From Escherichia coli (GTDB lineage: Bacteria > Pseudomonadota > Gammaproteobacteria > Enterobacterales > Enterobacteriaceae): 26,066 nt of DNA. Both the position numbers and the translations under genes were made by a program. The notes below the pieces were generated by a model, which was not told where the DNA came from, made no database searches, and worked only from the letters and a program-made list of their open reading frames with translations. Location: NCBI RefSeq assembly GCF_003334255.1, contig NZ_QOWU01000064.1. One strand, given 5' to 3'. This document shows, one piece after another, positions 22,505 to 23,973 of the stretch (within the stretch, counting starts at the first letter, position 1; the number at the start of each line of letters is the position of its first letter).

Positions 22505-22617
22505 GTAAGGTACTGGAAATGTTGACCACTTAATCGGGACTGGTGTTATTATTGCCCGCTTATGTCGTCTGCATTGCACAGAGGACCCTTCAATGAACAG
22601 AGAAGAAATGCACTGTG

Positions 22618-23973
22618 ATGTTGTCAAAATTTAAGCGTAATAAACATCAACAACACCTTGCCCAACTACCCAAGATTTCTCAATCAGTTGATGATGTCGA
22701 TTTCTTTTACGCTCCCGCCGACTTCCGGGAGACGCTGCTGGAAAAAATAGCCAGCGCGAAGCAGCGCATTTGCATTGTCGCCCTGTATCTCGAACAGGAT
22801 GACGGTGGCAAAGGCATTCTGAACGCGTTGTATGAGGCTAAAAGGCAGCGTCCGGAACTGGATGTGCGGGTGCTGGTCGACTGGCATCGTGCACAACGTG
22901 GACGCATTGGCGCTGCGGCATCTAACACTAACGCTGACTGGTACTGCCGCATGGCGCAGGAAAATCCGGGCGTAGATGTTCCGGTTTATGGCGTTCCAAT
23001 CAATACTCGTGAAGCCCTTGGTGTTCTGCACTTTAAAGGCTTTATCATCGACGATAGCGTACTTTATAGCGGTGCCAGCCTGAACGATGTTTACCTGCAT
23101 CAGCACGATAAATATCGCTACGACCGTTATCATCTGATCCGTAACCGTAAGATGTCAGACATTATGTTTGAATGGGTTACACAGAATATTATGAATGGCC
23201 GCGGCGTTAATCGTCTGGATGATGTTAATCGGCCAAAAAGCCCGGAAATCAAGAACGATATTCGTCTGTTCCGCCAGGAGCTGCGTGATGCCGCTTATCA
23301 TTTCCAGGGCGATGCCGACAACGATCAGCTTTCTGTAACGCCGCTAGTGGGGCTGGGGAAATCGAGTCTGTTGAACAAGACCATTTTCCATCTTATGCCT
23401 TGTGCCGAGCAGAAACTAACCATCTGTACGCCATACTTCAACCTGCCAGCAATCCTTGTGCGCAATATTATCCAGTTGCTGCGCGAAGGGAAAAAGGTCG
23501 AAATTATTGTTGGTGATAAAACCGCGAATGACTTCTACATTCCGGAAGATGAACCTTTCAAGATAATTGGCGCATTGCCTTATCTCTATGAGATCAATCT
23601 GCGTCGTTTCCTGAGCCGTTTGCAGTATTACGTCAATACTGACCAGCTAGTGGTTCGGTTATGGAAAGATGACGACAACACCTATCACCTGAAAGGGATG
23701 TGGGTTGATGATAAGTGGATGTTGATCACCGGTAATAACCTGAACCCGCGCGCCTGGCGTCTGGATCTGGAAAACGCCATTTTGATCCACGATCCGCAAC
23801 TTGAGCTGGCGCCACAGCGAGAGAAAGAACTGGAGCTGATCCGCGAGCATACCACCATCGTTAAGCACTATCGCGATCTGCAAAGTATTGCCGATTATCC
23901 GGTGAAGGTTCGTAAACTCATCCGCCGTTTGCGCCGTATCCGCATCGACCGATTAATTAGCCGCATCCTGTAA
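22618..23973 (+). CDS. pssA: CDP-diacylglycerol--serine O-phosphatidyltransferase (phosphatidylserine synthase, PLD superfamily)
   Basis: 451 aa from ATG 22618 (MLSKFKRNKHQQ...); two HKD-type motifs (HFKGFIIDD and HLKGMWVDD). The ORF track starts one codon earlier at GTG 22615. Confidence 0.93.
   Translation: MLSKFKRNKHQQHLAQLPKISQSVDDVDFFYAPADFRETLLEKIASAKQRICIVALYLEQDDGGKGILNALYEAKRQRPELDVRVLVDWHRAQRGRIGAAASNTNADWYCRMAQENPGVDVPVYGVPINTREALGVLHFKGFIIDDSVLYSGASLNDVYLHQHDKYRYDRYHLIRNRKMSDIMFEWVTQNIMNGRGVNRLDDVNRPKSPEIKNDIRLFRQELRDAAYHFQGDADNDQLSVTPLVGLGKSSLLNKTIFHLMPCAEQKLTICTPYFNLPAILVRNIIQLLREGKKVEIIVGDKTANDFYIPEDEPFKIIGALPYLYEINLRRFLSRLQYYVNTDQLVVRLWKDDDNTYHLKGMWVDDKWMLITGNNLNPRAWRLDLENAILIHDPQLELAPQREKELELIREHTTIVKHYRDLQSIADYPVKVRKLIRRLRRIRIDRLISRIL

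Follow-up and report, generated by a model that had tools for sequence, protein, structure and literature searches.

RESULTS

The 13-codon ORF upstream of pssA is pssL

The DNA analyzed here (the window) is a 26,066-nucleotide stretch of Escherichia coli (contig NZ_QOWU01000064.1, assembly GCF_003334255.1) in which patZ (886 aa), pssA (451 aa), yfiM, and kgtP are neighbors. The gene pssA occupies positions 22618..23973 on the plus strand and encodes the 451-aa phosphatidylserine synthase, as indicated by the list of open reading frames (ORFs), the annotation of strain MG1655, and the Pfam PLDc domains found on homologs. The pssA product catalyzes the reaction that commits the pathway to phosphatidylethanolamine, which is the major membrane lipid of E. 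coli.

What lies at the start of this gene? On the same strand, an upstream ORF of 13 codons plus TAA (22593..22634; DNA sequence ATGAACAGAGAAGAAATGCACTGTGATGTTGTCAAAATTTAA) encodes the peptide MNREEMHCDVVKI. Its codons are ATG AAC AGA GAA GAA ATG CAC TGT GAT GTT GTC AAA ATT TAA, the third being the rare AGA, and the acidic, polar 13-residue product lacks any hydrophobic segment. A Shine-Dalgarno (SD) sequence, GAGGA (22581-22585), is separated from the ATG at 22593 by a 7-nt spacer, CCCTTCA. The pssA ATG at 22618 lies 25 nt 3′ of the ATG of the short ORF, in a different frame, so that the two reading frames overlap by 17 nt; the TAA of the short ORF (22632-22634) falls out of frame at +15 to +17 of pssA, 14 nt beyond the pssA AUG. 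A first-pass annotation of the window had described this arrangement from the SD to the overlap with the pssA ATG, and all of its coordinates proved exact.

Comparison with E. coli K-12 MG1655 makes the identity of the ORF essentially certain. All 42 of its 42 nucleotides are the same as positions 2722702-2722743 of NC_000913.3, where the gene is annotated as pssL (b4782; YP_010051192.1, “protein PssL”), and the copy in the window does not differ from it in sequence, position, or overlap with pssA. The window comes from a K-12-like genome: over 6,001 bp, it and the MG1655 chromosome differ by 2 mismatches, at positions 19903 and 21600, both within patZ. The pssA region was found in 5,426 of 5,426 complete E. 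coli genomes, and in 5,412 of them the 85-nt region around pssL had an identity of 99% or more. Among RefSeq assemblies, NC_000913.3 has the pssL annotation, which apparently was not carried over to most others; for the PGAP-annotated E. coli genomes listed, the match shows only pssA and patZ.

Codon 6 of pssL is itself an in-frame ATG (22608-22610, plus strand) that directly follows the purine-rich AGAGAAGAA and could start an 8-residue version of the peptide. Only Escherichia, Citrobacter, Salmonella, Intestinirhabdus, and one Klebsiella have this second ATG; the others carry ACG, TCG, TTG, CCG, or CTG in its place.

The arrangement is weakly above chance, and published experiments show that pssL is translated

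How often would such a pattern arise by chance? We shuffled the 60-nt leader 20,000 times with its dinucleotides preserved. An out-of-frame ATG ORF of any kind spanning the pssA start turned up in 55% of the shuffles, and one with an SD at least equal to that of pssL turned up in 4.4%. At the latter rate, on the order of a hundred similar cases per genome would be expected by chance. From the sequence alone, the combination of SD, ATG, and overlap is thus weakly above chance, and we accept pssL as real because of published experiments, not because of the pattern.

These experiments were reported by Weaver, Mohammad, Buskirk & Storz (mBio 2019; bioRxiv 10.1101/511675), who predicted pssL from ribosome profiling with the initiation-trapping compounds Onc112 and retapamulin. 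The gene could not be tagged because pssA is essential. A pssL-lacZ fusion was expressed, and replacing the start codon with a stop codon abolished that expression; the same replacement lowered the expression of pssA-lacZ by about 30%, for which the authors suggested a loss of translational coupling. A transposon-reporter screen, PIRT-seq (NAR 2025, PMC12350097), later had pssL among its re-detected small genes. The two experiments that the first-pass annotation called for, initiation-trapped ribosome profiling and lacZ fusions with the start codon of the upstream ORF mutated, had therefore already been published. With pssL annotated, translated, and able to affect pssA-lacZ, published work rules out the coincidence that was offered as an alternative to a leader peptide governing pssA translation. 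The leader peptide itself stands insofar as pssL is translated and raises pssA-lacZ; “governing” overstates a modest effect of about 30%. Both pssL and its tuning of pssA are published, and the upstream ORF is not a new finding.

The published knockout represents one type of mutation, which also changes 3 nt of a conserved initiation region. The effect of the start-to-stop replacement on pssA-lacZ could therefore also have come about independently of translation. Weaver et al. 2019 reported no condition-dependent or signal-dependent effect of pssL. Expression of pssA is described as being raised by the pssR1 mutation, which maps to the anti-SD sequence of the rrnC 16S rRNA (Bartoli et al. 2017, as cited in Weaver et al. 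2019).

A candidate promoter precedes the leader

By eye and by conservation, we identified a candidate extended −10 element, TGtTATTAT, at 22544..22552 on the plus strand, together with a conserved, possible −35 element, TTGACC, at 22522-22527 on the same strand, 19 nt from the candidate −10. The motif TATnAT, mostly with an upstream TG, is conserved in 81 of the 81 species compared, and in most species where the regular expression matched, the candidate −10 ends 65 nt before the pssA ATG. A scan for consensus promoters that required a spacer of 16 to 18 nt found no match; the 19-nt spacer of the candidate falls outside this rule. The two elements, which fall within the well-conserved stretch 22505-22560, are likely the promoter for pssL-pssA, and transcription would then begin at about 22559-22561.

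A further upstream ORF opens at ATG 22562 (22562-22618, plus strand), which would place it very near the predicted start of the transcript. Its 18 codons are in the third frame and close with a TGA that overlaps the pssA ATG (TGATG). We rejected this ORF as a coupler, since it lacks an SD and a TAG breaks the frame in most Citrobacter.

Searches for known regulatory elements gave little. No terminator-like sites were found in 22300-22700, and no terminator/antiterminator pair. An Rfam 15 scan of 22300-22800 assigned no family; its sole match, to mir-6 on the minus strand, was spurious (24.7 bits versus a gathering threshold of 58). In the literature, we found nothing relevant on control of pssA by small RNAs or Hfq.

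The pssL SD lies in the arm of a conserved hairpin

The candidate promoter is followed by a predicted stem-loop, HP1 (22564..22586, plus strand), made up of the 5′ arm GUCGUCUG, the loop CAUUGCA, and the 3′ arm CAGAGGAC. HP1 was identified by folding and covariation. Its predicted energy in E. coli is −8.5 kcal/mol, and most genera are predicted to form the same hairpin. Pairing held in 83.5% of the alignment cells, compared to 35 to 53% when the partners were slid, and the covariation score of 0.166 (0.116 in shuffles) was reached by 0 of 500 shuffles. One pair alternates between C-G (26 distinct sequences) and U-A (14), and where E. coli has a G·G mismatch, other genera have G-C or G-U. The compensatory C-G/U-A switch separates the Escherichia/Citrobacter and Enterobacter/Lelliottia groups. 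A shifted register of HP1 (columns 9-17 with 30-38) had no support in the alignment pair counts and was discarded. Given the candidate promoter, the transcript probably begins only a few nucleotides ahead of HP1. We found no published description of this hairpin.

The GAGGA of pssL (22581-22585) is located within the predicted 3′ arm of HP1. The contrast that the first-pass annotation drew between the two SD sequences holds, with a best anti-SD duplex of −5.8 kcal/mol for the upstream ORF versus −2.7 kcal/mol for pssA. However, “strong SD” is apt for the duplex and not for its accessibility: GAGGA is not free but would be paired in HP1. With its SD sequestered in this way, ribosome loading at pssL should be limited. 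The folding and covariation data thus place the pssL SD in the 3′ arm of a stem-loop whose conservation includes species without pssL.

pssL appears restricted to a clade, and its leader does not

Is pssL conserved along with the gene that it precedes? The comparison covered the pssA loci of 80 Enterobacteriaceae species (scan loci with at least 87% identity) plus that of Salmonella, 81 in total. The Salmonella locus was obtained via the Salmonella Pat protein. The PssA cluster at 90% identity includes an 886-aa Salmonella Pat/PatZ acetyltransferase, which is probably a clustering artifact due to a fused or miscalled gene.

At the aligned position of the pssL start codon, 50 of the 81 species (49 of 80, plus Salmonella) have ATG, 25 have ATA, 5 have TTA, and 1 is frameshifted. 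ATA was found in Klebsiella, Raoultella, Kosakonia, Phytobacter, Trabulsiella, Yokenella, and others, with Klebsiella, Raoultella, and Kosakonia having either ATA or TTA at this position. GAGGA and ATG occur together in 24 of the 81 species, which comprise only Escherichia (5 species), Citrobacter (17), Salmonella, and one Enterobacter isolate. The group of Enterobacter, Lelliottia, Leclercia, and Silvania keeps the ATG with GACAA, GATAA, or TATAA where the SD would be, and Trabulsiella and Superficieibacter have GAGGA with ATA.

In the frameshifted case, one Enterobacter asburiae (locus L036, 1470-1503), a 1-nt insertion after the equivalent of the pssL ATG shifts the frame of the ORF, which then ends at a TGA overlapping the pssA ATG (TGATG). 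This is a coupled geometry reached by a different route.

The start codon of pssL is missing in 31 of the 81 species, and the pssA initiation region stays invariant; from −18 to +44 around the pssA ATG, the nucleotides hardly vary among the species, including those that lack a pssL start. Species without pssL thus keep the same leader, which indicates that the upstream ORF is not needed by pssA. The patZ-pssA spacer, too, shows far stronger conservation than the 3′ end of patZ (mean major-allele frequencies of 0.86 to 0.96 versus 0.54).

The PssL peptide presents a different picture. In species that carry the ATG, the substitutions inside pssL are all nonsynonymous (E5D, M6T/S, K12Q, a premature stop, and a stop loss), and several of those that change the peptide are synonymous in pssA. 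The premature stop (locus L017) gives an 11-aa PssL, and the stop loss (locus L041) gives a 15-aa PssL. Nucleotides that are nearly invariant, combined with substitutions that change the peptide, argue that selection is acting on pssA and its leader RNA and not on PssL. Taken as a whole, the alignment suggests that the structured pssA leader is by far the more widely conserved feature and that pssL was most likely added to it in one clade (Escherichia/Salmonella/Citrobacter).

The pssA initiation region is constrained beyond pssL

Between HP1 and pssA lies a conserved purine-rich block, AACAGAGAAGAA (22596..22607, plus strand), which forms codons 2 to 5 of pssL and may serve as a weak SD-like or standby region of pssA. 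Its core, AGAGAAGA, is present in 80 of 80 species, with or without the pssL start codon, and the block is identical in Salmonella. The best anti-SD duplex of pssA given above is weak.

A second hairpin, HP2 (22610..22661, plus strand), was predicted from the minimum free energy (MFE) fold and from the invariance of its stem. It consists of GCA-cu-GUG-a-UGUUG paired with CAACA-a-CAC-cu-UGC, an interrupted stem of 11 bp around the pssA AUG that reaches codon 15. In the predicted fold, the pssA AUG is within the 5′ arm, and pssL runs through this arm and stops in the loop. The MFE is −9.3 kcal/mol with a z of −1.05, so that the energy alone is not significant, and folds of the whole leader had energies no better than those of shuffled sequences (z = −0.05, −0.86, and −1.05). 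All 22 of the 22 stem positions are invariant in the 81 species, compared to 7 of 24 loop positions that vary (Fisher P = 0.0097). When third codon positions alone are counted, variation affects 0 of 4 stem sites and 6 of 8 loop sites (P = 0.06), and the variable sites at −9 and +45 directly flank the stem. An invariant stem cannot covary, and HP2 is therefore unproven; a hairpin enclosing the pssA AUG is plausible on the strength of this model.

Codons 1 to 20 of pssA are among those with the lowest synonymous variability in the gene across the 81 species. The first 12-codon windows have a synonymous entropy of 0.20 bits, versus a median of 1.14 bits, and rank 2 to 3 of 414. This constraint extends to about codon 20, well past the stop codon of pssL. 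These patterns of substitution point to an initiation region that is under strong constraint at the RNA level, beyond what pssL explains.

DISCUSSION

On the basis of the published experiments and of our comparisons, we favor, with moderate confidence, the interpretation that pssL is a positive translational coupler of pssA, which acts constitutively and modestly (about 30%) through the act of its translation and not through its peptide. Ribosomes would load at the GAGGA/AUG of pssL, in the single-stranded linker, translate the 13 codons that extend through the pssA start region, and terminate at the UAA 14 nt past the pssA AUG. This passage may keep HP2 unfolded around the pssA AUG, and/or ribosomes that end translation of pssL may reinitiate at the nearby pssA AUG. 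Either step would result in more initiation at a start codon with a weak SD, on the order of 30% extra.

A neutral role for pssL is the most serious competitor, and we consider it a doubtful one. Under this explanation pssL is translated as a by-product of an HP1 arm whose GAGGA happens to lie 7 nt from a chance ATG, and the 30% drop in pssA-lacZ is due to the 3-nt change in the initiation or standby region of pssA. The frequency of the pattern in shuffled leaders (4.4%), the independent variation of ATG and GAGGA among genera, and the pairing of HP1, which by itself accounts for GAGGA, are all as expected for a by-product, as are a peptide free of selection and a small published effect. However, SD, ATG, and ORF are strictly kept together in Escherichia, Salmonella, and the 17 Citrobacter species. 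The near identity of the 85-nt region in 5,412 of 5,426 E. coli genomes points the same way, though this region is conserved anyway. The direction of the effect on pssA-lacZ also fits coupling.

Could pssL be a sensory leader peptide instead? In that case, a metabolite, the charging of tRNA, an antibiotic, or the status of the membrane would stall ribosomes on pssL or alter their speed, and the leader would be remodeled so as to control pssA. The leader is indeed structured (HP1 and the predicted HP2), the constraint at the RNA level on the leader and the first 20 codons is unusually strong, codon 3 is the rare AGA, and pssA expression is described as sensitive to the anti-SD of 16S rRNA (pssR1, as cited in Weaver et al. 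2019). We nevertheless regard a sensory role as unlikely, as the peptide has no run of regulatory codons and the region has no terminator/antiterminator and no Rfam match. In addition, 31 of the 81 species lack the start codon, the substitutions are all nonsynonymous, unlike those in conserved arrest peptides, and Weaver et al. 2019 did not report a condition-dependent effect.

Comparison with known systems leads to the same view. Like trpL, hisL, pheL, tnaC, secM, mgtL, and speFL, pssL is a short translated ORF in a structured 5′ leader. Attenuation leaders carry a regulatory codon run and a terminator/antiterminator, and arrest leaders have a conserved peptide sequence. MNREEMHCDVVKI has no codon run and 22300-22700 has no terminator-like site, which sets pssL apart from the attenuation class (trpL/hisL); a peptide without purifying selection, with its start codon missing in so many species, sets it apart from the arrest class (tnaC/secM/speFL/mgtL). 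Most likely pssL has no sensory role: a leader that is conserved without pssL in many genera, together with an unconstrained peptide, makes pssL look like a constitutive enhancer and not a sensor. In this respect it resembles yoaL-yoaE (Weaver et al. 2019), in which translation of a small leader ORF is needed for full downstream expression, although the effect of yoaL is strong and that of pssL is about 30%.

In geometry, pssL also resembles baxL-baxA, argL-argF, and evgL-evgA, each with a short out-of-frame ORF that overlaps the 5′ end of the next gene. Of these, baxL and argL repress their downstream genes (Weaver et al. 2019), and pssL could likewise compete with pssA if initiation 25 nt upstream occluded the pssA start, the two start codons being closer than one ribosome footprint. 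This we hold to be very unlikely, since loss of the pssL start lowered the expression of pssA-lacZ instead of raising it; pssL enhances pssA.

Some very small E. coli proteins function in trans. It is extremely improbable that PssL is one of them, acting for example by binding PssA or the membrane: in spite of its annotation as a “protein,” it is a peptide of 13 acidic and polar residues with no hydrophobic segment, is lost in many genera, and tolerates substitutions, truncation to 11 aa, and extension to 15 aa.

That a translated upstream ORF tunes pssA, a gene of the phosphatidylethanolamine pathway, is already published. Our comparative findings suggest a restriction of pssL to one clade, an SD set within a conserved hairpin, and a role for translation itself in preference to the peptide, and they provide new context for work on pssL. 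What remains new beyond this is a deeply conserved, structured pssA leader (HP1, purine linker, and HP2) under a constraint that pssL does not explain. We tentatively raise the possibility, which we think rather improbable at present, that this leader of about 100 nt, which across Enterobacteriaceae is more strongly conserved than the coding sequence next to it, is an undescribed element of posttranscriptional control. Its inputs might include temperature, a small RNA or protein partner, or the status of the ribosomal anti-SD, as in pssR1. If this were true, the leader element would set or sense the rate of phosphatidylethanolamine synthesis, and pssL would be a later, clade-specific modifier of it.
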